A stretch of 64,000 bases of DNA. It comes from Narcine bancroftii (lineage: Eukaryota). The notes under the pieces are model-generated. The model was not told where the DNA came from. It saw nothing but the letters and a program-made list of their open reading frames with translations, and ran no database searches. The position numbers and the translations under genes were made by a program. This document shows positions 3,588-51,001 of the stretch, in pieces (the stretch's first letter is position 1; each line of letters begins with the position of its first letter). Location of the stretch: contig NC_091470.1 of assembly GCF_036971445.1 (NCBI RefSeq), positions 228,036,001 to 228,100,000 of the forward strand, in the 5' to 3' direction.

Positions 3588-4998
3588 TGTAATGGAAGAT
3601 TTAAACTGTTTTTTTACTTTTGCAGCCTTTGCTTCTGCAAGGCTGAGAACTTGCTTGTTTTTTTAGAATTAGTAGACACATCAAAATTCCACCATGGGGC
3701 CCAGGATGCAGTTGAATCAGTAGACATTATCTAATTTACACTATGAGGCCCAGGGATGGTATATGAATCAGTAGACATTATCTAATTTACACCATGAGGC
3801 CCAGGGATGGTATATGAATCAGTAGACATTATCTAATTTACACCATGAGGCCCAGATGCATATGAATTAAGATCTTTTCCACCATGAGGCCCAGAGATGC
3901 AGTTTTCTTTTGTTGGTCGCAGACTGTCAGGAGACCTTGAAGATAATTAAATCATTTCAAAGAGATAAGATCTGAAGTAAACAACTTTTGGGTAATATAA
4001 GCCATGTCTGAATCATGGGTCCTCTACCGGCATCACCTACGGCTCCTAGAACGCTTTCACCAGCGTTGTCTCCGCTCCATCCTCAACATTCATTGGAGCG
4101 ACTTCATCCCTAACATTGAAGTACTCGAGATGGCAGAAGCCGACAGCATCGAATCCACGCTGCTGAAGATCCAACTGCGCTGGGCAGGTCACGTCTCCAG
4201 AATGGAGGTCCATCGCCTTCCCAAGATCGTGTTATATGGCAAGCTCTCCACTGGCCACCGTGACAGAGGTGCACCAAAGAAGAGGTACAAGGACTGCCTA
4301 AAGAAATCTCTTGGTGCCTGCCACATTGACCACCGCCAGTGGGCTGATATTGCCTCAAACCGTGCATCTTGGCGCCTCACAGTTCGGCAGGCAGCAACCT
4401 CCTTTGAAGAAGACCGCAGAGCCCACCTCACTGATAAAAGACAAAGGAGGAAAAACCCAACACCCAACCCCAACCAACCAATTTTCCCCTGCAACCGCTG
4501 CAACCGTGTCTGCCTGTCCTGCATCAGACTTGTCAGCCACAAACGAGCCTGCACCTGACGTGGACATTACCCCTCCATAAATCTTCGTCCGCGAAGCCAA
4601 GCCAAAGAGAGAAGAAAGAGAGATAAGCCATGGTCCCACTGCTGAAGTTTGAGACTCTCCAAAAGGTGGCAACATCTCTCAGCAAGAAGAAGAACTTCAA
4701 GAGTCCAGCTAATGTCCCGGTCGAGGGAGGTAGAGAAGCTGCTACTGGCGCCCCGACAACCAATTACAAGTGTGCAGTTGCTGCCTCGCTTTGGCAGTTA
4801 GGACCAGTCCAGGTGTTGATAAGTATAATTGGGAAGGGCTTGCATATTGTAGTGTGAATTCAGCTTTAAATTTGGTAATAAAGACTTGTATAAAATGAAC
4901 TGCTCTTGGTGTGTGTGTGTCTATTTTCTTTTGGTAGCTCAAACACTGTGACCAATCTAAAACGAACAAAAGTGAGAGGTACAAGTTTACCCAAGACA
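3588..4998 (+). repeat. ERV 5' LTR (contains a ~50-bp tandem array and an RTE insertion)
   Basis: Starts tgtaatggaagatttaaa and ends acccaagaca, matching the ends of 9543-10121. AATAAA at about 4877. Confidence 0.92.
4007..4622 (+). mobile_element. 5'-truncated RTE LINE inserted in the ERV 5' LTR
   Basis: ORF 4004-4558 with LERFHQRCLRSIL...QLRWAGHVSRM...RLPKIVLYG. Purine-rich tail. 10-bp TSD ATAAGCCATG (3997-4006 and 4623-4632). The 3' LTR shows the empty site. Confidence 0.93.
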
Positions 4999-5000
4999 AT

Positions 5001-5018
5001 TGGCGCTGTGAACAGGAT
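5001..5018 (+). promoter_or_regulatory. ERV primer-binding site, tRNA-Ser-like
   Basis: TGGCGCTGTGAACAGGAT lies 2 nt after the LTR. It is 17/18 identical to the complement of the vertebrate tRNA-Ser(CGA) 3' end as I recall it (TGGCGCTGTGAGCAGGAT). Confidence 0.75.
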
Positions 5019-5029
5019 TGGTCTCAAGA

Positions 5030-7290
5030 TGTTTCGCCGAAAGAGGTGAGCCCTGAGCAGTTCTTGATTCAGTGTTGGACTTCCAAAGACAATGGGTTTG
5101 GCATGTTGGCCAATACCCTGTCTTTGTTGGGACCACCCATTAGTTGGGATGAGGAGTTAGATCCATCAAGTGCACCTCTGGGAGAGTGGGTTGCCACTCT
5201 CCTTCGAGAAAGTAAATTTCCTGGTAAAAAAAATGAACGCTGAGAAACGGTTTTTGGCTGCTGGCCGCAGCCTTATACCACTCCGTTAAGCATGAAGCAG
5301 AATTAGTTCAAAGAGAAGTAGAATCTCAGCACAAGAGAGAGCAATTAGAGGAGGAGCTAAAAGCCATGTGACAACGCCATTACATGATTAGCGAGAATGT
5401 TCGCACCAGTCAGGACCGAGCCAAAGAATGGAAAGATAAGCATGTCCAAAAGATCTGCGTAATATTAAACTCCGGTAGCAACTCTGTGCAGATAAAGAAA
5501 GGCATGGAGTAGAACCCGATCCACATCGTATTTGTGCCATGATAAGGAATGGCGACGATCCTGATGTAATTGATGAATGGAACGGGAATATCTGGAATGA
5601 TGATCATGGTAATAATGCAGATACTCCTCAGCATGTAGATAACATACTGCCCTCTCCACCTGCTGTTCACGCCCACCCCATAAGGCAGCAGACTTAGCAA
5701 ACAGACGGAAGGAGGGATGATGATGTAAGGGTAGAGATTGAAGGGATAGATACCCCGATCTCCCAAGCGGACACGGGAAAATACCCGAACCCCTGCTTAT
5801 GCTCTATGGCCTATCCCCTCTACGGGATGGCCTAGGCCTCATCCCGTCCACTGGGCAAATGACCCTGTGGGCCAAAGTGGGAGCAGAGGTCAAAAGCAGT
5901 CAATGATACATGACTTCTCTATAAAAGAGCTGGCTGCCATTGGAGATCGATTTAGGCAAAAAGCGGGAGAAACTCTGGCAGCCTGGCTCCTGCGTGTTTG
6001 GGAGCAAGGAGGGGGGTAATGTATATTTAGCCCCTGAGGAATTGTTGGGATTAGGAACATTGACTACTGATATCCAGGTCACTGCTGAGCTGCGGGGTAG
6101 AGGAAGAGAGATGGATTACTAACTTGCCACTCTAGGGGATGCCCTGCTACGAGTATACCCATCACCAGTAGATTGGGATTTACATTTGCAGAATTGGGGC
6201 ACCCCAGAGGAGGGTATAGCTGTAATTCATCAGCAGGCCCTGGCCTCTGTCTTGTATGCAGGGCGTTTTAGGCTGTGAGTATATGGGGGGAGCCCTGATG
6301 AAGAGATATTCACAGCCGGAATGCATACCTGATTGGTTCGTTCCGCCCAACCCACTGTACGGGGACTGGTTCTGTCCGTAACTAGTCCGCTAATTGGGCA
6401 CCCTGTGTCTGAGGCGGTGCACGCCTTATCTGGGCTTAGAGAATTAGAGTTTGGAAGTAAAATCCACTCACGTACAACTCAAGTTAAATTTGACAAGCAG
6501 GATGAAAAGAGAGGGGCTGCTGCTAATAACGGACCGACAAGAAAGGACCTTTTTCTAACCTTGTTAAAGTTAGGCGTACCTAAAAGTGATATTGATAGGA
6601 AACCTACTGTGGTCCTTTATGCCCTTTATAAGAGAAAGGCAAGAGAACATCATACCCAGCTGTTGAGTCTTCCTGGCCCAACTGTGCCTTCTGCTCCCAC
6701 TGCTGCTCCTATCGAGCCAGCTTCTCTTCTCTTGCTCCAGTTATCCATGATGAGATACAACAAATGATTAAAAAGGCTCTTATGGATAATAGTGGCACGT
6801 GGGCCTGGAAGCCTCCCGAACCCTACTAAAGCACGAGGGTGTGGGCAGGGCCTCCGTGTCTACTCTATTGAGACACGGCGGATACATGGGGACCCACGGC
6901 CCTACACAACATTAACAATCCATTGTGGTGGGGGTAATGACTGCCAATATTTGGCCTTGGTTGACACCAGTACGGAGCACTCGGTGATTCCTGTAACCCC
7001 GACCTCTGGACTGGACCGACATTTCGAATAGAGGGGATGGGAGGAGCGATCACCCTGGCGAAGGAAATAAAAGTCCGCGCCACGGTGGGTAATGTCCCTT
7101 CCCCTATATGGTTACATGCCCTGGTGGCTGCCACTGACAAGTGTATCCTGGGTATTAATATGTTGCCCAGTACGGCCCTTAATACTAGCCAAGGGGGATT
7201 TGCATTTGGAATTCGGACTATTACAAAGAGACTAGTGGTGGGTCGAGCTAAGTGGGATCCTGTGATGGTGCCTCTCCCCCCCCACCCCCG
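5030..7290 (+). pseudogene. gag: ERV gag and protease, frameshifted
   Basis: Broken ORFs between the PBS and pol. Protease-like ALVDTSTEHSVI (6792-7031) and KCILGINML (7037-7399). Confidence 0.7.
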
Positions 7291-7298
7291 AAACCAGT

Positions 7299-9119
7299 AT
7301 GCATTCCACAATATCACCTCCTGGGGGGCAGGAAGAGATTACTGCCACCATCGATGCTTTGCAAGAAGGAGTAGTGAGGCCTGCAACGTCGCCCTTTAAT
7401 AGCCTTGTTTGGCTGGTCCAGAAGCCGGATGGCTCCTGGAGAATGACAGTTGACTATTGTTTTTTGAACAAACATGCCCCACCACTTGCTTTGGCCATTC
7501 CGGACATTGTTACCCTTATTGAAAACATTGCTACTGGGAACTCAGGAACATGGTATGCTGTCATTGATCTCGCTAACGCCTTCTTCAGTATTCTTATAGC
7601 TGAGGTCTCACAGGATCAGTTCGCTTTTACCTGGAAAGGGCATCAGTATACCTTTACCTGCCTCCCTCAGGGCTATGTCCACTCTCCCACTATTTGCCAC
7701 AGCCTAATTGTCTGTGATTTGGAGACGGTGCCAGTATCGCCTTCCCTCTCAATTCACCATTATATTGATGATGTGATGATCCAAGGGGCCACGGAAGAGA
7801 TGGTACAGAAAGCAGAACAAGAGGACACCTGGTTTACTGATGGTAGCAGCCGGTGGGTGCAAGGAAAGCAGAAGTGGAAGGCGGTGGCTTACCATCCCAG
7901 GTCAGGAACTCACTTATTGGAGGAGGGGGATGGTGGCTCCAGTCAGTATGCTGAGTTGAAGGCGGTCACTTTACCACTAGACACCCATGATCACCCTCTT
8001 CGCTTGTTTACTGATTCCTGGGCTGTGGCTAATGGACTAGTGATATGGGTGTCAGATTGGCAAAAGAATGACTGGCTGGTACATGACTGCCCAGTATGGG
8101 GAAAACAGTTGTGTCAGCTGTTGTGGGATGCTTCCCATCATCGTGAGATAACAGTATATCATGTTGACGCCCATATCAGTGCGACGACGAACATAGCACA
8201 ACATAATGCAGTAGATCAGCTTGCCACTATCAGCCACGCCGATACTGTCCCCCTGGCTCGATGGGCACACGAACAGAGTGGCCATTTGGAGGAGAAGGGA
8301 TCAGCTATGTGTGCCCGTACACATGCCTTACCTGTCCATCAGGATGATGTCCGCATGGTCATGCATATATGCCCAGCATGCCAGCTTGTGAAGTCCTGTA
8401 CCATTCCTCCTGGTCCGCATGGCCGAATAAGATGGGGAGCTCGCTCAGCTGCGGTCTGGCAAATTGATTACATAGGCCCTATGCCAGACTGTATGGGTAA
8501 ACATTACGTCCTAGTAATGGTTGACACCTTTTCGGGCCTGGTTTTTGCTTTTCCCACCAAGACGGCTGACCAAGCTAGCACTATCCAAGGACTAAACCAT
8601 TTAATTTCTCGTTATGATGTACCAGAGGAAATTCAGTCTGATAATGGCTCGCACTTCTCCAGGAAGGCAATCTGTGATTGGGCAGCTGACAACAGTATTT
8701 TATGGGTCCACCATATTCCTTATTACCCACAGGCTGCCGGGGTAGTTGAACGAATGAATGGCTTACTGAAGGAACAAATTTGTTTGTTAACACCACTGGG
8801 GACTCTGAAGGGGTGGTGCCATGTGCTGCAGCAGGCAGTCGACAATTTGAATCATCGCCCTTTGAAGGGAGGAACACCTTTCCACTGACTTCTTCACGCT
8901 TCTGAACTACAGCCTATTCCAGAGGAAAAACAGTCATTGCCCCCCATTCCCGAGCTAGAGAATGCCGGACAAAAGATAAGGGTGGCACCAACAGGTAGTG
9001 GCCCTCCTGTAAAAGGGGAAATAGTGACACCTGCCCAGGGTAACACTCGGTGGGTAGCTATTGAGGGACAGGATGGTTTAGTTTGTTTAAATACTGAACG
9101 CTTACGGCATCGTGAGTGA
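7299..9119 (+). pseudogene. pol: ERV pol (RT-RNase H-integrase) with an in-frame internal deletion
   Basis: FNSLVWLVQKPDGSWRMTVDY, IDLANAFFSI, LPQGYVHSP and HYIDD, followed within about 20 aa by WFTDGSS. HHCC zinc motif and DDE core. Stop at 8888; the C-terminal integrase piece runs to 9119. Confidence 0.9.
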
Positions 9120-9129
9120 CATACGTCAG

Positions 9130-9520
9130 GCTTCTCTGATCCAGGTTCTCCGTCTTGCACTCCTGCTAATCTGGCTTAACCGCTGCTTTGATGCCAGTAA
9201 TTGTATTTGTAATGTCGAGGACGTTCCGAGGGAGTTGCCCGTGGGGGTCATGGCCCGATGTATCCACTAATATATCTGATATTGTTAAGCATGTTTCAAA
9301 ATCTGTTTGTGAGCTTCAGTGTCTGGGTACTGTGGCCCACAAGGATATTTTGAGCCTTGATTGGAATCCTTTTTCATGGTTAAATAGTACATTTGGGGGA
9401 GTGGACCACAATATTCTCCGTTGGTTGCTCGATTATTGCCTATTTTTGTGCTTATTATAGTTTTAGTTTTTCTTTTTCACTCCTTCTGTACTCAAATGCT
9501 TGTTGGGTCTCGTAAGTGAC
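9130..9520 (+). pseudogene. env: Collapsed env remnant (signal-peptide-like start joined to a TM C-terminal part)
   Basis: Hydrophobic VLRLALLLIWLNRCFDA at 9145. In another frame, PDVSTNISDIVKHVSKSV...LDWNPFSWLNSTFGG...NILRWLL plus a hydrophobic run. It lies between integrase and the PPT. Confidence 0.6.
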
Positions 9521-9542
9521 AGGTTGCGACCAAGGGGTGGAA

Positions 9543-10121
9543 TGTAATGGAAGATTTAAAGTGTTTTTTACTTTTGCAGTCTTTGCTTCTGCAAGGCTGA
9601 GAACCTGCTTGTTTTTTAAAATTAGTAGACACATCAAAATTCCACCATGTGGCCCAGGATGCAGTTTTCTTTTGTTGGTCACAGACTGTCAGATCTTGAA
9701 GATAATTAAATCATTTGTTCAAAGAGATAAGATCTGAAGTAAACAACTTTTGGGTAATATAAGCCATGGTCCCACTGCTGAAGTTTGAGACTCTCCAAGA
9801 GGTGGCAACATCTCTCAGCAAGAAGAAGAGTCCAGCTAACGTCCCGGTCGAGGGAGGTGGAGGAAGTGCTACCGGCGCCCCGACAACCTACTACAAGTGT
9901 GCAGTCGTTGCCTCGCTTCGGCAGTTGGGACCACTCCAGGCGTTGATAAGTATAATTGGGAAGGGCTTGCATATTGTAGTGTGAATTCAGCTTTAGATTT
10001 AGTAATAAAGACTTGTATAAACTGAACTGCTCTCGGTGTGTGTGTCTATTTTCTTTCGGTAGCTCAAACACTGACCAATCTAAAACGAACAAAAGTGAGA
10101 AGTACAAGTTTACCCAAGACA
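9543..10121 (+). repeat. ERV 3' LTR, preceded by polypurine tract caaggggtggaa (9531-9542)
   Basis: Direct repeat of the 5' LTR with TG...CA ends, followed by TSD GTAAC. Confidence 0.93.
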
Positions 10122-19200: not shown

Positions 19201-20038
19201 CTGTCACATAATAATACTTTAAAAATGTAACATATATGATATACTTTTGTCTGCTGTAAGGCAAAAACTCACCGTGAGCACGATGGCCTTAACAATAAGA
19301 GAAAAGGAAGCAAAAGGGAGTCCCTTCAGAGATATTGAGTTTTGTGGATTTGCCTCCAGTGCTCCCGCAGCTTCTGCAGGCTGAGGAGGCGGAGCGGGAC
19401 TCAGAAATGCCCCCGAGGGCTCTGGAGCAAAAAAAGAGAGAGAGAGAGAGAGCTTCTGCAGGCTGCACAGACTTTGATCCATCAGAAACCCGAGCTTCAG
19501 ATCCAAAGCTCCGGCATGATCAGGAGCTTTCAGTGCTCGAGGTCCTTCAGGAGTCCTTCCCTTTAGATTAACTAATATTTAAAATATCTGCTACACTTGC
19601 TTCAGTTAATGGGTGAAAAACATTTCATATACGTGAACCACTTTATCAAACCTGCTACCTTTATGATTTGTGGAAATAGACCTCAAGATCCTTCATTCCT
19701 CCACACTTTTTGTTACTCACTATTTTGTGCATGTAGAGCTCGTCGAAAGAATCAAAGACCTGTTGATCCAAACCAAGGCTTTTATTAGCAAAAGACAGGA
19801 GTTCTTCACAGGTGGCCGACCAGTCCGGAATGATCCGACCTGGCTAGGGACACAACCCTTTAAGGCCCAGACAGTAGGCGTGGCTAAGCTCTCAGCCAAT
19901 CGCTGTAAGCACAGTCTAGATATTTTAACTATATACACTATATACATTGGTGATAGATCTGTACTATCACATTCACCCCTTCTTGGAGAATTGACCCTGG
20001 AAAAAAAAACGAGGGAGAGAATGAAAGGAAGGGATAGG

Positions 20039-22900
20039 TTAAGGACTGTAGTGGTCAGGAGGTCTGACCATCCGGCGTGACCACCGTGGTGCCGGGATTG
20101 GGGTCGCTGGAGTGGTGTCGCCAGCGGGCTCGTCGGGTGCGACCGCTCCTTCGCTCAATTCCCCAGTCGTGTTGTCGGCAGGGTGGCCCAGGTCGTTGGG
20201 GTGCCTTTGGTCCTTCTGTTGCGGCACGGGCCCTGGGGAATAAAGAGTTGAGGAAGGTTGGGTTGGGGGGTTTGCTGGGTCTACCACGTCCTGTGCTAGG
20301 TCCCGCACCAAAACAGTGTCCTCCTGCCCGTCTGAGAACTCAACGTAGGGGTAATGCGGGTTCGCGTGGAGTAGAGTCACTCGGTCGACCAAGGGGTCGT
20401 TCTTTGAGTGCTGGACGTGGCGTCGCAAAAGGACGGGGCCAGGGACGGTGAGCCATGCCGGTACAGTGGTTCCTGATTCAGATTTCCTCGGGAAAAGGAA
20501 CATCTTTTTGTGGGGGGTGGCATTTGTTGCAGTACATAGGAGGGAGTGGATGGAGTGTAAGGCACTAGTGAGAACCTCCTGCCAGTGAGAGGTGGGGAGA
20601 CCTTTAGACTGGAGAGCCAGTGTAACCGCTCTCCAAATGGTGGCATTCTCCCTCTCGACCTGGCCGTGACCGCGTGGGTTATAGCTGGTGGTCCTGCTTG
20701 AAGCGATACCACACTCCAGAAGGTACTGTTGTAGCTCTGCGCTCATGAATGAGGACCCCCTATCACTGTGGATGGAATTGGGGTACCCAAAAATGGCGAA
20801 AATACTGTGAAGGGCCTGTATCACTGAGGTGGCAGTGGTGTCTGGGCAGGGCACAGCGAACGGGAAGCGGGAGTACTCGTTGATGGCCGTAAGGATGTAG
20901 TTATTAAGGTTAGTCGACGGTAGGGGCCCCTTAAAGTCTATGCTAAGACACTCGAAGGGGCGGGTGGCTTTGATAACATGGGAGTTATCTGGACGGAAGA
21001 AGTGGGGCTTGCATTCAGCGCACACCGAACAGGCTCGGGTCATGGAGCGGATCTCCTCGACTGTGTAGGGTAGGTTGCGCGCCTTCACAAAGTGGGAAAA
21101 CCTAGCGACCCTGGATGACAGAGCGCCTCATGGAGTTTCCGTAGTCTGTCCATCTGTATGCTGGCGCACGTCCCCCTGGAGAGCGTGTCAGGCGGGTCGT
21201 TGAGCTTACCAGGCCAGTACAGGATGTCATAGTTAAAGGTGGAGAGTTCGATTCTCCATCTGGCGATTTTGTCGTTTTTTATCTTACCACGCTGGGTGTT
21301 GCTGAACATGAAGGAGCCCGTGCGTTGATCAGTCAACAGTGTAAAGCGCCTCCCAGCGAGGTAATGTCTCCAACAACGCACCGCTTCAACTATGGCCTGG
21401 GCCTCCTTCTCGATTGAGGAGTGTCTACTCTCTGGACCCTGGAGGGTTCTGGAGAAGAAGGCTATAGGCCGACCGGCCTGGTTCAAAGTGGCTGCCAGGG
21501 CGAAGTCGGATGCATCGCCCTCGACTTGAAACGGGACAGACTCATCGATCGCGTGCAGCGTCGATGTCGGATTTGATTCGATTGAAAGCCGCTCTGGCTT
21601 TGATCGAGAGGGGAAAGGAGGTGGTCTTGATAAAAGGACGCGCCTTGTCGGCATAGTGTGGAACCCAGTGGACGTAATATGAGAAAAGTCCCAGGCAGCG
21701 TTTGAGCGCTATCTGGGTATGGGGGGGGAGGGGTAAGTCCATTAGGGGACGCATGCGGTCAGGATCTGGCATGACTATCCCGTTCTCCACCACGCAACCT
21801 AGAATCGCGAGTCGTGTGGTCCGGAAGACACACTTGTCCAAATTGTAAGTCAGGTTCAGCCGACGGGCAGTTTGAAGAAATTTGTCTAGGATGGCGTCGT
21901 GGTCCTGCGTGTCGTGGCCGCAGATGGTGATATTGTCCAGATACGGGAAGGTAGCGGTTAGCACGTTCTGGTCCACCATCCGGTCCATTTCCCGCTGGAA
22001 GACTGCGACACCATTTGTGACCCCGAATGGTACCCTGAGAAATTGATACAGCCGCCCATTCGCTTCAAAGGCCGTGAATGGTCGGTCCTCGCAGCGGATC
22101 GGGAGCTGGTGATAGGCCAAACGTAGGTCAATGGTGGAATATGCTGTATTGAGCGATCTGGTTCACCACATCCATGATGCGTGGCAGGGGGTACGCATCC
22201 AGGAGCGTGAAGCGGTTAATGGTTTGGCTATAGTCAACCATCATCCGTAGCTTTTCCCCGTTCTTGACAACCACCACCTGGGCTCTCCAGGGACTAAAAC
22301 TGGGTTCGATGATGCCCTCATCCAGCAATCTACGCACCTCACTCCTAATGAATTGCCTGTTTTCGTAACTATATTGCCGACTTTTGGTGGTCACAGGCTT
22401 CCAGCCAGGGGTGATGTTTGCGAAGAGTGCTGGCGGGGCAATCCGGAGTGTGGAAAGGCCGCAGGATTGGCCCCAGGGCACGGGGGCAGGTTGCTCGGGT
22501 GCTTCGAGGGTGGGGCGATGGCAGACCGAGAGGGGGGGTGTGGGGTCCCCCAAAGTGTAGGGACACCGTTCGGAACTGACACTGAAAGTCTAATCCCAGC
22601 AACACTGGGGCGCACAATTGGGGAAGGACGAATAATTTGAAGTGGGTGACCGTTATGCCCTGTACTTCCAGCGTGGCGATGCAATACCCCTTTATCCCAG
22701 TCGAGTGCGACCTCGTCGCTAATGAGATCCTCTGGGTAGTGGAGATAATGTCAAGTCCCCAACTGAGGGCCAGATCTGGCCGGATAAAACTGTCAGTTGA
22801 CCCAGAGTCAAATAAGCAATTGGTGTAGTGTCCATGCACTTTAATCAGTTCCATTGCTTTAGTGAGGGGATGAGAGCATTGCTGGTTTAGTGTTATAGAA
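20039..22900 (-). pseudogene. pol: Gypsy pol: protease, RT, RNase H and integrase (frameshifted)
   Basis: CLFDSGSTDSFI; SPWRAQVVVV...MVDYSQTINRFT; VPFGVTNG...YLDNITI; DASDFALAATL...EKEAQAIV; SIDFKGP...HSDRGSSF...GQVEREN. Confidence 0.92.
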
Positions 22901-23280
22901 GCAGCCACTGATCCAGTTGACAGGGGAGTTCTGCGTGATGACGTCACGCAACGGGATGACGTCATAGACGCAGTCAGCGCTGGAGGAGCAGGTTGGAGGA
23001 CCTCCCGGAAGTGCTGTTGTGGCGGCGTCAGCAGATGAAAGGTAAGTAGTGGGGTTTGTAGTTGCTCGCGGTTGGCGGTGAGTAGGTAGTTGGTTGCAGT
23101 GGTCGTGCCCCGGTTGTCATCAGCGATGGACGCTAGGGTGAGTACCTGGTTCGCTGCAGTGGGTCCCCAGTCAGTCGTGGTGGCCACACCGGTGGCGGCA
23201 GCAGAGGAGCGGGCAGCAGCAGCGGTAGCGTTGGCCGCGGCGGGTCCCCAGTCAGTCGTGGTGGCCGCATCGGCGGTGGC

Positions 23281-24380
23281 TTAGGCAGCGGCAGACGGGG
23301 AGCGGGCAGCAGCAGCGTCGGCCCCGGGGGTGGCTGTGGCGGCGGCAGCAGCAGCGGGAGCGTCGGCCCTGGGGGTGGTCATGGCAGTAATGGACTCTAC
23401 AGTCGGGACCAAGGCCGGGTCGAGTGTTCCACATGGGGGCGAGAGGCGGGCCAATATCATGGTTGCTAGGGTGGGCTGCCCCTTCCGGGTTCGGTGTCTC
23501 TGTGACGTCAGGCGTTGCCGTGCAGGGGAGCCCTCGCTCTCATTAGACGAGAGCTCTGGGGAAGAAGAGTTTGAATTGGATAATGGCGGTTGGGCTTCAC
23601 ACGAGGCACTGTGTTTGCCGGCGGCCATTTTAGACCTACAGACTGCAGCAAAGTGGCCGTTCTTAAGGCATTTCTGGCACCTGGCTTTTCTTGCTGGGCA
23701 CTGGGACCTGCTGTGCTTGTCCCTCCCGCAGAAATAACATTTTGGGTTCGCAGGGAGCAGCGTAGCAGCAGCCGACAGGCCGTAGGTATCTCGGGGGGTG
23801 GTAGGGTAGAAGGGCATTCTACTCACATCAGAACGAGGGGTCCAGTCCCTAGAGAACTCATTGGACTTTAAGGCTGCATCCTCCATTGTGATCGCAATCT
23901 GGGCTACATCCTCTAGTTTTTCTACCCCTTGCTCAAGCAAGCGCAGCCTCACTTCGTTCGATTGGAGCCCGGCCACATAGGCATCTCGGACAAAGTCGCT
24001 AGTGATCTCGGCAGCAGTTTTGTCCACAGTTACAGTCCTTGCCCAATGCCTTTAATACTTGTAAATATGCCCTGCTGGACTCGCCGGGCTGTTGCTTCCT
24101 CGATGCAAGCACAAGCCGGGCATGAACTCTGTTCACCGGTTGATCATACAGTTCTTTCAGTATCTTTATGGCTACGGTGTAAGTGGTCTCATCCTGGATA
24201 TTCTCGTAGACTCTCAAGGACACCATAGACAGCAATGCTGTTAGACGCTAGTTATCCTCCTCTTCCTGAATGAATCTCAGGAAGTTTTCAAAGTTCAGCA
24301 GCCAGAACTTAAAGGCTTTGAAGGCTGTAGCTGACTGTGGGTCAATATCAAGTTTTTCTGGCCGAGTCAAACGCTCCATC
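23281..24380 (-). pseudogene. gag: Gypsy gag with zinc knuckles
   Basis: MERLTRPEKLDIDP..., ARLVLASRKQQPGES and CYFCGRDKHSRSQC-PARKARCQKCLKNGHFAAVC. Confidence 0.88.
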
Positions 24381-25441
24381 CCTTTCAAAAAATTTTTTTC
24401 CTTTTTGCTAATAAAATTGTAGAGCTCGTCGAAAGAATCAAAGACTTGTTGATCCAGACCAAGGCTTTTATTAGCAAAAGACAGGAGCTCTTCATAGGTG
24501 GCCGACCAGTCCGGAATGATCCGACCTGGCTAGGGACACAACCCTTTAAGGCCCAGACAGTAGGCGTGGCTAAGCTCTCAGCCAATCGCTGTAAGCACAG
24601 TCTAGATACTGTAGCTATATACACTATATACATTGGTGATAGATCTGTACTATCACACCCAGCAAATGCACAAACCTACTGAAGAAATACAGCAGATCTC
24701 TCCTGTCATCTTAGCCCTTTGTTTATACTTGCCCTCTCCTGTTTCCACTTTAATCTCAATAAAGAGTCCCAACCCAAAACCTTGACATTTCTATCCATGG
24801 ATGCTGTCCGACTCACTTGAGTTCCTTCATCTTCTCTTTGTTAATTCTTTGAGGAATTAAGATTCAACAATGCAGTCCTTGTAAGCACTTACTGCCAAGA
24901 ATGGACAAGGGATTACAATCTACTTCCCTCAATACTCAGTGCATGAATCAAGTGTGGTGTTTTTCCCATCTAGCATCATACCAGGAGGTCAGATACATTA
25001 CAGTTCAAGATAGCTATCACTACACATCCGCTCCCCACAAGTGTGCCATCCTTCAAGAGAAAGTCAACACCAGAAAAGTGTTGAGTTTCTCTTCCCCACT
25101 TTTTTTTCCACACTCCATATATTTGCATATCACATTGCTTTGTCGGGTTGCACTCTTACAACAAAAACATTTACAATTGCAGGAGACACTGCTGGGTAAA
25201 TTCTGAAAGAAAATACACATCATCATAAAGGCAATCATGTGGGATGCATTATTTGCAGAAAACAACTTTGGAAGTTGATCATATCACAGGGCAGCATAGT
25301 GGGAAACTATTCTCAGCCTGCACTCAAGGAGTTTCATTAATCCCCTAAACCCCATCCACATTATGGTCAATAACCACTCAGCAGACTCCCCCTCCACCTT
25401 CCTCCCCTACATCCCATCGTCCCCATCATCATCCCCTCCCT

Positions 25442-28400
25442 CATGGTAATTGGGATTCTTCTGACCACGAGCGAATGTTGGAGAAGGAAGGTCTTACCTC
25501 GGGTTAGATGCACAAAATGGATGTTCCACAAGGTCATGAGTTAATAATAAAATATACGGTAAGTAATACAAAAGAACTCAAGTTTCTTTATCACAATAGA
25601 AGAAACATTACATGATACCAGGAGTGGGTATCAGCAGAAGACATGAAGTGTGACAGAATATGTTGTGTTTTATATTGTATACAGATATGATTTTGGGAGA
25701 TAAAGTGTGGCAGTTTTTTTTAGTGTAGGTCACATACAAACACTTTAGATCAGATCTCATTTAAAATACTGGAGCTTTGCTCAAGCTAGACAGGCCAGCT
25801 CCAAATGCCTTTGCAAAAGCTTTGGGGAATGCCCAAGGAATTGTTGTTTTGAAAAGCAACAGATGAAAGAACTCATCGGAGCCTTAGTCTGTCTGAGTGG
25901 AGGTTACTGTTCTAAGAGGGGCATGTAGTTTTTCAAGCAGAGAGAGCAAAACAGATTTTTCTCTGAGAGAGAGAGTTCTGCAGTTTTATGATCAGCAGCA
26001 ACAGCTTGGACTGGAACTGGACAAGCTGGCAAGCTTGTGGAAAAACCCCATTTTGAAAGATGGGTTGCGTGTGTTTAGTTCAGCCTGGTCAAAGCTCGTG
26101 ATTCATTCAAGAGGAGAGGACTGGCTGCCTAATGTTTCACTTGAAATAAGAGCAATAAAAATGAACTCTGTGGTGACCTGAAAGAAAGAGGTTATCACCT
26201 GGAAAACCTTGAAGGGGCAAGTTTCTTCAGCAAGACACTGAAGTGGCTGATAAAAAGGAATCAGTTGTGGGTGTCCAGCGAACAACAAATCTCTCTCTGA
26301 AAACTGTCATGAACATTCCTGAACACTAACCATTTACCTTGCAAGCACCAAAACCTGGTGAACTTTTTAATTGTTAAATTTTGTGCACAGTATAAGGATT
26401 GCCTGCAACCATTAAACTTGGAGGAATGAGAAGTGAGATTGGACTGTGAATCAAAGAACTTACACACACATTTCAAACATGTGTCAAACATGTGTGCTTA
26501 GAATTAGAAGGGGGTTAAGTTAGGTTAATTAAGTTAATAGTGATAAGTTAAAATGTGATTCTGTTTTCATGTTTAAAGATAATTAAAAGCAACTTTTGTT
26601 TAAGTAACCATTTATCTTGGTGAATATCTATTGTTGCTGGGTTTTGGGGTTCTCTGGGCTCATTACAGAAGCCACCTGATGATGTGAATTGGACCACAGG
26701 TCGTGGTTGTTCAAACAATGATTCATGCTTTATCTGCAACCCATTGGACTTGATAGCAAACCAGATGCACAGAAGATTACACTGCTACTTACTGTGGCAG
26801 GTCCAGGGCAAGTTTGACAAGGTTATTGAGATGTTTGATGGACACTGCTCACCAAAGCAAAATTAAATGTTCGAGAGGTTCGTATTTCGCTCGCGCATGC
26901 AGCTGCAGGTAGAGAGCTTTGATACTTTTTTAACAGATTTGAAATTGAAAATAAGAACATGCAATTTTGGATTGCTTGCAAGATTCAATGATCAAATTGT
27001 GTTTGGAATTATTGACAAGGGAGAGTGAGAGGTTGCTATGAAAGAAAGAGCTTACCTTAGCTGGAGCTGTGAAGATACAATATGCCATGCCAGTGAATTT
27101 GCTCTGCAGCACATGAAAAAGTTTGATGGGAGTGCAAGGGCTGGTGAAAATGAAGGCACAGCTGTAGCTACAGTGTCTGGAAGTACACATGAACAGAGAA
27201 TGAGACATAGAAAACAATAAAAAGACAGAGAAACTTTCAATTGTAAATGATGTGTTACTTAACATGCACCAAAACAATGCCAAGCAAATGGAAGAGTCCT
27301 TAACAGTGCAAAGGACAAAATCACTCTGCAAAGCAATGTTTTCCAAAGGGAAACAAAACAGAAGTGAAGGTGAAAATTAATTCTTCGTAGGCATGGTAGC
27401 GCAAGAGGTTTCAAACCAATAGATGTTGAACAGCCAAGTGTGAACAGAGTTGAGTAGGACAAGTGGACAATGCCATTGCATGGAAATGGACCAGATATTC
27501 CTTTCAAGTTGGACAGAGGCAAAGGCTAATTTGATCTGAGAGCGCAACATCAGAGCAATGAGATAAAGTCACACATTCATTCAAATTCTATTCAGCCTAC
27601 AATGGACAGCATATTCACGTGAAAGGCACATATAGACTCAAGGTGAAAGTTAAAGAGCACCACCTCATGTTTGTAGTAGTCCCAGATGGACATGACTCAC
27701 TACTTGGTGATAAAGCATGTGAAAACTTAGGCCTAGTCAAGAGGGATTGGCATTAACAGCGCCAATGCAAGAATAGTGTAGAGGAAATACTAGATCAATT
27801 TGCAGACATCTTCAAGAGGTTTTATGTTCTATCATTCACCTACAAAATACAGTTAAAGGAGGACGCAGACATGTATTCAAGTACATACCCCAAGGTGGTT
27901 CCACCACCACTAAGGACAAGCTCAAGCAGAAGCTCAACTGAATGACATCATTAAAGTTGATAAAGAAAATGGAGGAGCCCACAGAATGGGGGAATTCAAT
28001 GGTGTGTGTCAAAAAGAATGCTGACCTATGTGTGTGCATGGACCCAAAAGACTTGAATGCCAGTATAAAGGAACATTATCACATTCCAACCAGCAATGAA
28101 ATTAAAGTGAGATGACAGGTGCAAAGTTTTTCACCAAATTGGATGCATCCCAGGGCTTCTACCAATTAAAACGGCAGGAAGATAGCACAAAATACTGTTC
28201 AATACACTGTTTGGCCCATACTCCTGTTTAAAGACACCTTTTGGAATTTCCTCAGCTCCTTTAGTGTTCCACCAGACAATGGAGCACATCATAGAAGACA
28301 TAAATGTATACATAGATGACATTGTCCTATGGGAATCCACACAGGAGCAACACAACGAGAGGTTCATCAAAGTGCTACACACATTCAGAAATATGGATTA

Positions 28401-29940
28401 AAGCTAAACAGAGAAAATTTCAGTTTGGTGTGAAGGAAATTACCTTTTTGTGAGATAAGCTGTCAGAGGCAGGTGTAGAGCTAAACAAGAGCAAGCTGAA
28501 AGGAATTCTAGACATGCCCAGACTATAGACAAAAAGAGAGTACTGGGAATGATCGATTTCAATGGTAAGTTCATACCAAACCTGTCTTCCAAAATAAAGT
28601 ATCTGAGGGAGTGGTTACATGACAAATCTGAATTCAAGTGGATGGCCAACCACAAGGAAGAATGGGGATGACTGAAGACCATTTTAACTACAGAAATGGT
28701 ACTTTTGACATTCTTTGATCCATCCAGAAGGACAAAAATATCTATGGACGTTTCAAAAGATGGAAAGGTACCATACTACTTCAAGCAGTGCGAGAAGATT
28801 GGAGGCCAGTTGCATACACATCAAGGACAATAACCACATCTGAATGTCAATATGCACAGATAGAGAGAGTGCCTAGGTCTGGTCTATGGACTAAAGAAAT
28901 TCCACCAATATTCATGGCAGAGACAGACCAAAAGCTATTAATAGCCATAATCAAAAAAAAAACCTCAGTAAGATGTCACCACGAATCCAAAGACTGATGA
29001 TGAAGCTACAACATTATGACTTTGAATTGGTGTACATACCAGGGAAACTTATTGCGGTGGCTGATACTCTGTCCAGGGAAACAACGCAGAGTGAAGCACA
29101 CAATAAGAGTTCCACGGATAAAGATGTGAATCTCTGTGTGAACTTGATCACTGAATCTCTTCCCATATCCGACTGGCATGAAATCCAAGCAGATTGTGGC
29201 TAAAACAGAAAAGGACATAGTTCTACAAAAGGTCATCAAGAATCTGAATGGAGGTTGGCCTAGAAGTGAATGTCATCAATACTACAATATCAGAGCAGAA
29301 AAGAGTGTTGTCAATGGGCTTCTACTCAGAAAGTGGAAAAATAAAGGAGGCAAAAAGCAAATTATGACAAGTCAGCAAAAGCTTAGAGTCAATGGCACAT
29401 GACACAGTGAGACTCAGAGATTCCAACACCTGGGACAAGAAGGAAGGCCACTGTCCTGGAAGAGGTAAAGGTAAGATCCTGCCATGTCAGAACAGAGAAT
29501 GATCAAATACTGAGGAGGAATCAAAAGAGCCTGCTGAAAACACAATGTTGGAAGAACAGACAAATGCAGAAATGGGAAACACCACCAGTGCTAGACAGTT
29601 GTGGACCAGAAGAGCTGACACAAGCATTAGTAAAGTAACCAACAGGCTAAGTCTCTAAAGGAAAAAGAACTGGACACTTATAATGTTTGTGCTGTTGATT
29701 TTTGTGTTCAACTTCAAATTGAAAGAATACTGTAAAACAATGTAAGATTGCTAGATTAAACATCTTAAGAAAAGGTGATGTGGTGATTGGGAGTTGGTGA
29801 TCCTCCTGACCATTAGAGAAAGCAGGAGACGAAATGTCCCACCTTGGGTTAAATGCACAAAATGGAACTTGTGAGTTAATAATAAAATATGTAATACAAA
29901 ATAACCCAAGTTTCTTTACCACAATAGAAGAAACATCACA
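25442..29940 (+). mobile_element. Old Mag-like Gypsy LTR retrotransposon, heavily decayed, interrupted by a solo LTR
   Basis: Diverged LTRs at 25442-25612 and 29779-29940. Leu-tRNA-like PBS tgataccaggagtggg at 25613. PPT aagaaaaggtga. Motifs FERFVFRSRMQ, EEPTEWGNSMVCV, YMDD-type core tacatagatgacatt and MSPRIQRLMMKLQHYDFELVYIPGK. Near-TSD tccct/tcccc. Confidence 0.85.
25649..26667 (+). repeat. Solo LTR (~1 kb) related to the Gmr1-like element at 32680-35801
   Basis: tgtgacag...cattaca with a perfect 4-bp TSD GAAG (25645-25648 and 26668-26671). Homologous in inverted orientation to 34519-35801. Confidence 0.88.
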
Positions 29941-30109
29941 TCCCCATCTTTCCACACACTGCTCCTTTTACCTTTCCTCGCTCGATTTCCCACGCTCCTT
30001 CAATAAAATTAGATAAGTGAGATGGCCGACCCGTTTCCTACTCTAAGGCAACTCAGGTCAGTCGCCAAGGAGCTCAGGAACCCACTCCGGCGCACACGCT
30101 CCTCCCCCG

Positions 30110-30665
30110 CCCCCCGAGGCAACGGCCAAACCCCCGCGCGTACTCCTCTCCCCCACCCCCCCCCCGGCAACGGCCAAACCCCCGCGCGCTTCCGACCCCG
30201 AGGCAACGGCCCAACCCCCGCGCGCACTCCCCCCCCCCACCCGACCCCGAGCAACAGCCCAACCCCCGCGCGCTTCCGACCCCGAGGCAACGGCCCAAAT
30301 CCCGCGCGCACTCCCCCCCCACCCGACCCCGAGCAACGGCCCAAATCCCGCGCGCACTCCCCCCCCACCAGACCCCGAGCAACGGCCCAAATCCCGCGCG
30401 CACTCCCCCCCCACCCGACCCCGAGCAACGGCCCAACCCCCGCGCGCTTCCGACCCCGAGGCAACGGCCCAAATCCCGCGCGCACTCCCCCACCCCACCC
30501 GACCCCGAGGCCAACGGCCCAACCCCCGCGCGCTTCCGACCCCGAGGCAACGGCCCAAATCCCGCGCGCACTCCCCCCCCACCCGACCCCGAGCAACGGC
30601 CCAAATCCCGCGCGCACTCCCCCCCCCACCCGACCCCGAGCAACGGCCGAACACCCAGCGCGCGC
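30110..30665. repeat. CpG-rich VNTR, 13 units of two alternating variants (~36 and ~46 bp)
   Basis: Core ccgaccccgag(g)caacggcccaa(a/c)(t/c)cccgcgcgc, followed by either actcccccccca or tt. Confidence 0.95.
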
Positions 30666-31839
30666 TGTCCCTGTGGTGCGCGACCAAATGAAATTCCTTC
30701 CGTCATATTCCGCCGCATTAACACACACTAATCGCTAGAAGTGGGCAACGAGATGGTTATATAGAAGAAAGAAAACATAATGTAAGTGTAGTAGTAATAG
30801 CTTTTTTTAAAGCAGTGAGGATTTCTAACCCTTGAGAGCTTGTGGTTTGAAATGGGCGTGACATTACATTGTGCTCCTTATATCAACTCCATTTAAATCC
30901 ACAACCTACCTTGGTCACACACAAGGAAATCCAGGTCTGCCTCACGATTAACTCTTGCACTATGCAGGATGGCACAAGTGCGTCGGGGCAGTTCATCAAC
31001 GTCATGAAAGCCAAGCTTCAGTGCCAGGGCTCGGTATCATGAGGGAGGGGGTACTGGGGCATTCGAGGGCTATGCCCCCCCAATTGTACCCCCCCCCCCC
31101 CAGCCACTGCACAAGCATCACTCGGGAGTTGTGGGTCATGTGAAAAGTCGGCTCAGTGCGTGGCCTCCAGGTGCGAGAGCATGTAGTGACCTGAATGGGA
31201 TAGGATAGGGTTTGCCTTTGAGCCCCAAAATGCCTGAGTGACCAAACGTATTCATATAGGCTGCCAACGGGGCCCAAAAAAAAGACAGATGAAAACTTGC
31301 CTCAGCAGCAGCCAGCACATTTGGTCAAGGGTGAATTGAGAAAGTCTGGGGGATGTGTTTGTACCTATGGGAACAGATCCAGCAATCTATTGGGATGTAC
31401 TCAAACCATATGGATCCCATGGAAAACCATTCTCTTGTGAATTTCAAGCATTGACAGTCATCAGAGACTGTTAAAAGAATTAACAAACGAACATGGATTA
31501 AATCGAAAGCCACATTCTGCACAACTCTGATGGACACTTATCAGTGGTGGAAAACTTTATGATTGGAAGATAGTTTTAATTTACAATTGCGAACTGCAGC
31601 CCCCCCCCCCCCCCACACCACTGAGTGAGTTCTTGAACAGCAGTATGTGCCCCCCCTCCCCCCACCACAATTATCCTAATGCTCCCGATTAGATCTATTC
31701 TGATGCTGACTCTGGTCACTGTCTGGAATGGTGGTGCCAACACTCAGGACAGAAAAACTCCAGAGGGTTGTTAACTTGTCCTGCAACATCACAGGCACTA
31801 GAAATCACTCCATCAAGGACATTTACAAGAGTGATCCTC

Positions 31840-50739: not shown

Positions 50740-51001
50740 TGTAGTGCTCGTCAAAAGAACCAAAGACTTGTTGATCCAAACCAAGGCTTTTATTAGCAAA
50801 AGACAGGAGCTCTTCACAGGTGGCCGACCAGTCCGGAATGATCCGACCTGGCTAGGGACACAACCCTCTAAGGCCCAGACAGTAGGCGTGGTTATTTGAT
50901 GTGATACTTTGAGGCTATTTTACAGCCAATCGCTGTAAGCACAGTCATTACGTTCTAGATACTGTAACTATATACATTGGTGATAGGTCTGTACTATCAC
51001 A
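50740..51001 (-). repeat. Solo LTR of the 19732-24657 Gypsy family
   Basis: tgtagtgctcgtc...ctgtactatcaca aligns to 19732-19971, with local insertions. Flanks atgat/atggt (5-bp TSD, 1 mismatch). Confidence 0.92.

Follow-up and report, generated by a model that had tools for sequence, protein, structure and literature searches.

How does an LTR retrotransposon start reverse transcription when its primer-binding site (PBS) carries no TGG and mirrors a segment of its own LTR? This question is raised by an element on the minus strand of a 64,000-nt stretch of Narcine bancroftii DNA, referred to below as the window. A sequence-only reading of the window had proposed that the family primes from its own RNA, and that the same stem could hide the poly(A) signal of the 5' LTR.

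The element (19732-24657, minus strand, on which its features below also lie) is a decayed Ty3/Gypsy LTR retrotransposon with an LTR pair and gag-pol. Its 5' LTR (24418-24657) is 240 nt long, has TG...CA termini and shares 97% identity with the 3' LTR (19732-19971), next to which a polypurine tract is located (19972-19984); the contigs of four public runs have many loose ends at 24418 and 24657, the borders of the 5' LTR. The decayed gag-pol region (20042-24379) comprises Gag with a zinc knuckle, protease, reverse transcriptase (RT), RNase H, and integrase. It is damaged by one stop in gag (24248-24250) and by at least four frame changes, near 24026, 22140, 21560, and 21100, and is 81-96% identical over aligned pieces to the closest protein, P0001. 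Pfam searches of the ORF pieces returned a weak zinc knuckle followed by protease, RT, RNase H, and integrase in the Gypsy order, the Gypsy domain order was likewise obtained for P0001, and the best PDB match was Ty3 Gag-Pol (E 1e-72). Two TG...CA LTRs, a polypurine tract before the 3' LTR, and the order Gag-protease-RT-RNase H-integrase identify the element as Ty3/Gypsy. No chromodomain was detected in the window integrase (Pfam, E 0.01) or in any of the five relatives scanned (Pfam, E 0.1). The acidic RNase H positions, which are catalytic, are invariant across 47 aligned proteins. An Ala/Thr-rich repeated insert (23060-23360) separates the gag zinc knuckles from the protease, and P0001, with 1457 aa, exceeds most relatives in length by about 250 aa.

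The full-length copy shows no target-site duplication (flanks 24658-24662 versus 19727-19731) and may be a recombinant of two insertions or have lost one flank. Duplications of 5 bp were found in 14 of the 17 elements with both LTRs, 12 of them directly and two after the LTR boundary had been shifted by eye. A solo LTR of the same family lies at 50740-51001 (minus strand), and its 5-nt flanks agree at four of five positions.

The PBS itself (TTTTATTAGCAAAA, 24403-24416) is the exact reverse complement of an LTR segment at 24466-24479, the putative self-primer arm. This arm includes AATAAA (24467-24472) and, at 24475, the conserved G of pair 10; the two arms are 49 nt apart, and a single unpaired base (24417) separates the LTR end from the PBS. 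The 14-nt complement to the poly(A)-signal region that had first been noticed was thereby reproduced together with its coordinates, its 49-nt gap, and its AATAAA. It had also been claimed that a TGG is missing at this position, and none was found within 8 nt of the window 5' LTR end; tRNA genes were likewise absent from the window. An exact search of the window for the motif returned four sites, namely the PBS and the LTR copies starting at 19780 (3' LTR, 19780-19793), 24466, and 50788 (solo LTR, 50788-50801), which bears out that the motif is the same in all three LTR copies. Such a match is hardly expected by chance: among 20,000 dinucleotide shuffles of the 240-nt LTR none reached 14, the longest complement anchored at the PBS start being 10. 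In RNA folding of 24403-24479 the stem closes (z -3.2, with 1 of 200 shuffles equally stable), and z drops to -1.8 and -0.4 with added flank.

Four other LTR elements of the window had been credited with tRNA-type PBSs. Two of the four were viewed by eye, and for these the description stands in one case with a TGG and in the other with a site that begins differently. A retrovirus-like element (4623-10121, plus strand) has LTRs of about 375 nt, a TGG-type PBS at 5001, and a 540-aa ORF at 7266-8888 encoding RT (YIDD), RNase H, and integrase. An older LTR element (about 25434-29940, plus strand), whose LTRs are 78% alike over 68 nt, has a PBS starting with TGA at 25613, which we take to resemble a tRNA site. 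A G+C-rich tandem array at 30009-30738 consists of 36-50-nt units with all six frames open.

We were curious to know whether the self-complementary layout extends to relatives. Among the 120 listed of 1001 protein matches, the closest, with 90% identity, comes from the electric ray Narcine bancroftii, and others come from stingrays, a devil ray, catsharks, Trichuris, Palaemon, Actinostola, Seison, and Anneissia; with rays, sharks, a nematode, a shrimp, a sea anemone, a crinoid, and a rotifer represented, the clade is spread across animals. A full-length alignment of 47 proteins served as query for loci, as a gag-only alignment was too variable for two larger collections. It retrieved 67 loci (5 + 62, the latter from the best 80 of 568 metagenome matches), and three scans of viral contigs found no relatives. 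L001-L005 are animal-type retrotransposon contigs filed within bacterial metagenome-assembled genomes, where their presence is probably due to contamination by the host; two of them, L001 and L002, have a single LTR and are circularly permuted. A search of the ESM Atlas gave generic RT/RNase H clusters only.

Gag starts could be counted in 37 of the 67 loci (38 starts, L036 having two) and in the window, which makes 39; the 30 loci without a gag start were left out. At 36 of these 39 starts, the sequence one base past a CA pairs in register with a motif 24-87 nt upstream, and the single-base spacer fits all 36 junctions although the letters differ among them. L047 has a 12-nt complement at the opposite contig end, L055 has the entire layout (14 bp) at its other contig end as judged by eye, and L040 is uninformative, since its LTR/PBS junction lies outside the locus. 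The 36 starts form 19 families (20 clusters, two of which were merged as one family), with gag identities of 31-91% (median 52%) among them and 32-50% to the window. The 20 clusters carry 18 distinct PBS 13-mers. A TGG-type PBS in relatives would have spoken for tRNA priming; a TGG within 8 nt of the LTR end was found in none of the 19 families. The perfect match spans 10-18 bp across families, mostly 13-16, and in any family at most 1 of 2,000 shuffles matches the observed complement length.

The pairing, its register, and its conservation, with changes on both sides, were directly observed in 19 divergent families. Over pairs 1-13 (468 cells), 459 cells are Watson-Crick, none is G·U, and nine are mismatched. 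Of 13 positions, the PBS pairs at 12.65 with its own LTR versus 8.2 with the LTRs of other families, and for positions 7-13 the corresponding values are 6.85 and 3.73. Pairing beyond position 13 falls, to 14 of 19 families at position 14, 10 of 19 at 16, and 6 of 19 at 17. In an alignment of 18 families (L036 omitted for its duplicated junction, rows trimmed to the arms by hand), both sides have changed at 11 of 14 pairs (55 cells), while one-side-only changes number zero. The covariation score was reached in none of 500 shuffles, a shuffle that ignores relatedness, and slid controls were 29-50% paired compared with 97% in the true register. The family representatives used in the TGG, covariation, pretzel, and cut-feature tests were the best-paired members; first-member representatives give nearly equal pairing (253 of 260). 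The gag tree of the 19 families, built without an outgroup, resolves them poorly and gives strong support to none of its branches, so the changes above are counted as alignment cells. Neither of the two refutation tests that were run, for TGG sites and for loss of complementarity, overturned the proposal that the family primes from its own RNA, which these comparisons support. The self-complementary PBS is real, clade-wide, and probably functional.

A helix under folding selection alone normally tolerates G·U pairs. If the plus strand copied an RNA primer, the match would stay strictly Watson-Crick. An internal contrast is provided by the adjacent RCCT/AGGY hairpin described below, the first pair of which is G·U in 3 of 10 families, whereas the PBS duplex never has one. 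Closely related copies offer a second view of the same process. L010 belongs to nine copies about 1% apart (0.9-1.5% from its eight siblings, two of which, L011 and L012, may be one insertion) and, alone among the nine, carries one change in both LTRs that is compensated by a matching change in its PBS. A second family contains L013, in which both LTRs have changed and the PBS is still old, and L009, with a change in the PBS only. The states of L010 and L013 are what copying of the RNA primer into the plus strand should leave behind one cycle and two cycles after a mutation; each is a single event, and the pattern is as expected if the PBS is rewritten from the primer. In the four public runs, no variant of at least 5% was listed in either arm, which is weak evidence because all four are contigs, which cannot show starts, ends, or absence. 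A subfamily in runs X1, X5, and X8 equals the LTR up to 24473 and then diverges, with a different primer-arm sequence in which the G at pair 10 is retained.

The putative cut in the window copy would fall between 24466 and 24465, and GCCT follows it directly (24462-24465). RCCT follows the arm in 13 of the 19 families, and in 10 of these 13 an AGGY lies within 22 nt of it (1.1 expected), so that a short hairpin can form; in the window copy GCCT is present, and AGGY and the hairpin are absent. In 17 of 19 families a G occupies pair 10, at a fixed distance from the cut and independent of the position of the hexamer. We infer that the cut lies at the junction of helix and hairpin, a fixed distance away from the conserved G.

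Taken together, the sequences make self-priming in some form very likely, and we consider it likely that priming is Tf1-like, with the primer derived from the 5' part of the element's own RNA by an RNase H cut right after the motif. The transcript would start at the motif or just upstream of it, and the motif would fold onto the PBS across a loop of 24-68 nt (87 nt in one duplicated junction). The element's RNase H would cut directly after the last A of the motif, at the RCCT junction, where in most families RCCT would open the small hairpin. The freed 3'-OH would then prime the minus strand across the spacer and U5, and the short cDNA would transfer to the 3' end via the estimated 16-19 nt that separate the cut from the predicted poly(A) site. 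Plus-strand synthesis would finally copy the RNA primer, by which the PBS would be rewritten from the LTR motif, and wherever the arm includes AATAAA or ATTAAA, an added benefit of the pairing would be to silence the poly(A) signal of the 5' LTR.

Some observations count against this Tf1-like model. The range of match lengths points to no single fixed primer length, and the window copy lacks the hairpin. Just 2 of 19 families have a TATA-like word upstream of the arm at the distance expected; in the window LTR the nearest TTAAA lies about 70 nt upstream of the arm, and transcription may therefore begin elsewhere than at the motif. In addition, the two extra helices of the Tf1 'pretzel' (leader-loop and U5 end-loop) did not exceed shuffles across 18 families (Fisher p 0.46 and 0.42) in what was a crude test. 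A word GCCGCCATGTTT, which we presume to resemble a YY1 site, occurs in two families shortly upstream of the arm, at approximately L001:340-360 and L063:270-290, and could mark the transcript start.

Absent TATA words in 17 of 19 families and absent pretzel helices would be easier to understand if the primer were the 3' LTR copy of the motif, from the same or a co-packaged RNA, with the 3' end of the RNA trimmed to the motif and the start well upstream. The arm motif is identical between both LTRs in 16 of the 17 elements compared, so either copy would suit, and the arm often coincides with the poly(A) signal, which puts it close to the 3' end of the RNA. However, the match stops sharply after pair 13-16, which fits the copying of a short primer as far as its 5' end, pair 10 has a conserved G that would resemble a ruler or initiator near the RNA 5' end, and the A run of L052 is interrupted by a G and hence does not represent a poly(A) tail. 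We know of no precedent for a self-primer derived from an RNA 3' end, and regard this version as unlikely.

The stem might also be a regulatory hairpin that masks the 5' LTR poly(A) signal, with some other, unrecognised primer in use. AATAAA or ATTAAA is indeed found inside the arm in 11 of 19 families. Poly(A) sites generally have a hexamer, a cleavage position, and a downstream T/GT-rich stretch, and in the window AATAAA is followed at canonical distances by a predicted cleavage CA, about 16 nt past it, and a T/GT-rich stretch (24432-24451, minus strand, read from the sequence); the working poly(A) site would be the 3' LTR copy. Yet the stem is kept in the eight families without a canonical hexamer, where the arms end in GTTAAA, TTTAAA, TTAAAA, ATTAAC, or TGAAGA, and L052 has a perfect 15-bp stem with neither AATAAA nor ATTAAA. 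Moreover, the 3' arm always begins one base past the LTR end, precisely the position required of a primer, folding selection should allow the G·U pairs that are missing from all 468 cells, and no alternative primer site is evident. We therefore hold it quite improbable that masking is all the stem does. The earlier suggestion of a stem that masks the poly(A) signal of the 5' LTR is thus supported only in part, for the families with a canonical hexamer, and since these are only 11 of 19, occlusion is best seen as secondary. Finally, it is very improbable that the primer is a host RNA such as an internal tRNA fragment and that the LTR match is a by-product or due to chance: half-tRNA primers exist in Copia lineages (PMC6317226), but here the PBS varies among families and tracks the family's own LTR, and chance is excluded by the 20,000 LTR shuffles, none of which yields such a match.

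The RT of the window copy is unusual as well, with YLDN at its active site (21932-21943, minus strand) in place of YxDD. Within the 120 listed of 1001 matches, YxDN is found in 80 of the 104 related proteins in which the motif was located, and among the retrieved loci it is found in 49 of 58, most others having YxDD. Three members with YLDD (L050, L047, and L055) also have a self-complementary PBS, so YxDN and self-priming are not tied to each other. In the literature searched, no report of YxDN in a Gypsy element was found.

Tf1 of fission yeast is so far the sole proven case of self-priming. Should Tf1-like priming hold for the present clade, escape from host tRNA primers would have arisen more than once or be older than thought. 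Annotation tools based on the PBS would miss or mislabel self-primed elements, and the natural mixture of YxDN and YxDD would offer a comparison for RT catalysis. The strict Watson-Crick pairing with no G·U may serve as a sequence-only test of templated primer copying in any LTR lineage. Self-primed elements would presumably also lack the tRNA-complementary PBS that is targeted by 3' tRNA fragments (PMC7472051). At its broadest, the picture would be that of a large, uncatalogued animal Gypsy clade that evolved tRNA-free priming independently of Tf1/sushi, took as primer an LTR segment that usually holds the poly(A) signal, cuts at a helix-hairpin junction and not at a pretzel, rewrites its PBS in each cycle, and has an RT with two canonical aspartates (YxDN), the primer coming at the extreme from the RNA 3' end; we advance this combination tentatively, with somewhat less than even confidence.

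No description of priming in this clade was found in the literature, Repbase, GyDB, and most subscription journals lying outside the search. Repbase entries reportedly call some Anopheles Gypsy families self-primed (GYPSY1_AG), and prior notice in Repbase is accordingly quite possible. The name GYPSY1_AG falls in the CsRN1 cluster (PMC3601003 supplement). In the accessible text of the literature, Gypsy self-priming is attributed to chromoviruses only, namely Tf1/sushi and Tcn1 (PMC7175516, PMC10085805, PMC4600332, PMC5341516, PMC6317226, PMC2864245, PMC3601003, PMC3286476, PMC6934838, PMC5443660, PMC6238403, PMC8556966, PMC12471100, PMC4558846, PMC9094657), to which an apparently widespread, non-chromovirus animal clade would be added as a second. 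Among known lineages, identity with Saci2/lennie was set aside, since its target-site duplications measure 4 bp and its PBS, located four bases from the LTR, is of the tRNA-Leu type (PMC12471100, PMC4558846).

Short LTRs and animal hosts are shared with the Mag lineage (A, B, and C clades, SURL) and with unnamed MolGy clades. The single ORF and the double zinc knuckle of the window clade presumably resemble Mag as well. The Mag C clade, whose median LTR is 164 nt (PMC3601003 supplement), was the first candidate suspected for membership. Culex Mag-like elements, with which the clade was compared by published description, have tRNA-Leu, Ser, or Arg PBSs (PMC3286476), unlike the self-complementary PBS found here. 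Nematode belpaoviruses such as Atlas virus share the change from YxDD to YVDN at the RT active site (PMC9094657); they are BEL/Pao elements with env, whereas the present elements form a Gypsy lineage in which YxDN is mixed with YxDD. For Tcn1 chromoviruses and TAR Copia elements, self-priming was predicted from complementarity of at least 10 bp starting 0-5 nt after the LTR (PMC6317226), which is the same detection criterion as ours applied to other hosts (plants and fungi) and other lineages, Tcn1 being a chromovirus and TAR a Copia element.

The closest parallels are Tf1 and Tf2 (PMC5341516) of Schizosaccharomyces pombe, Tj1 (PMC4600332), and the Tf1/sushi group of chromoviruses, which has a chromodomain and a pretzel structure (PMC10085805). 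With these elements the window clade shares the Ty3/Gypsy order and a PBS after the 5' LTR that is complementary to an upstream LTR segment and has no tRNA match (PMC7175516, PMC4600332, PMC10085805). In Tf1 the PBS pairs with the first 11 nt of the RNA, RNase H cleaving between nt 11 and 12 (PMC7175516), whereas the match in the window clade is 10-18 bp, mostly 13-16; the Tf1 primer is the RNA 5' end, a position that is predicted for the primer of the window clade. The element would thus work like Tf1 and yet differs from Tf1/sushi in having neither a chromodomain nor, as far as detected, the two extra pretzel helices. Unlike Tf1, the window clade mostly has a short RCCT/AGGY hairpin at the putative cut, an arm that often overlaps the poly(A) signal, and an RT that is mostly YxDN.
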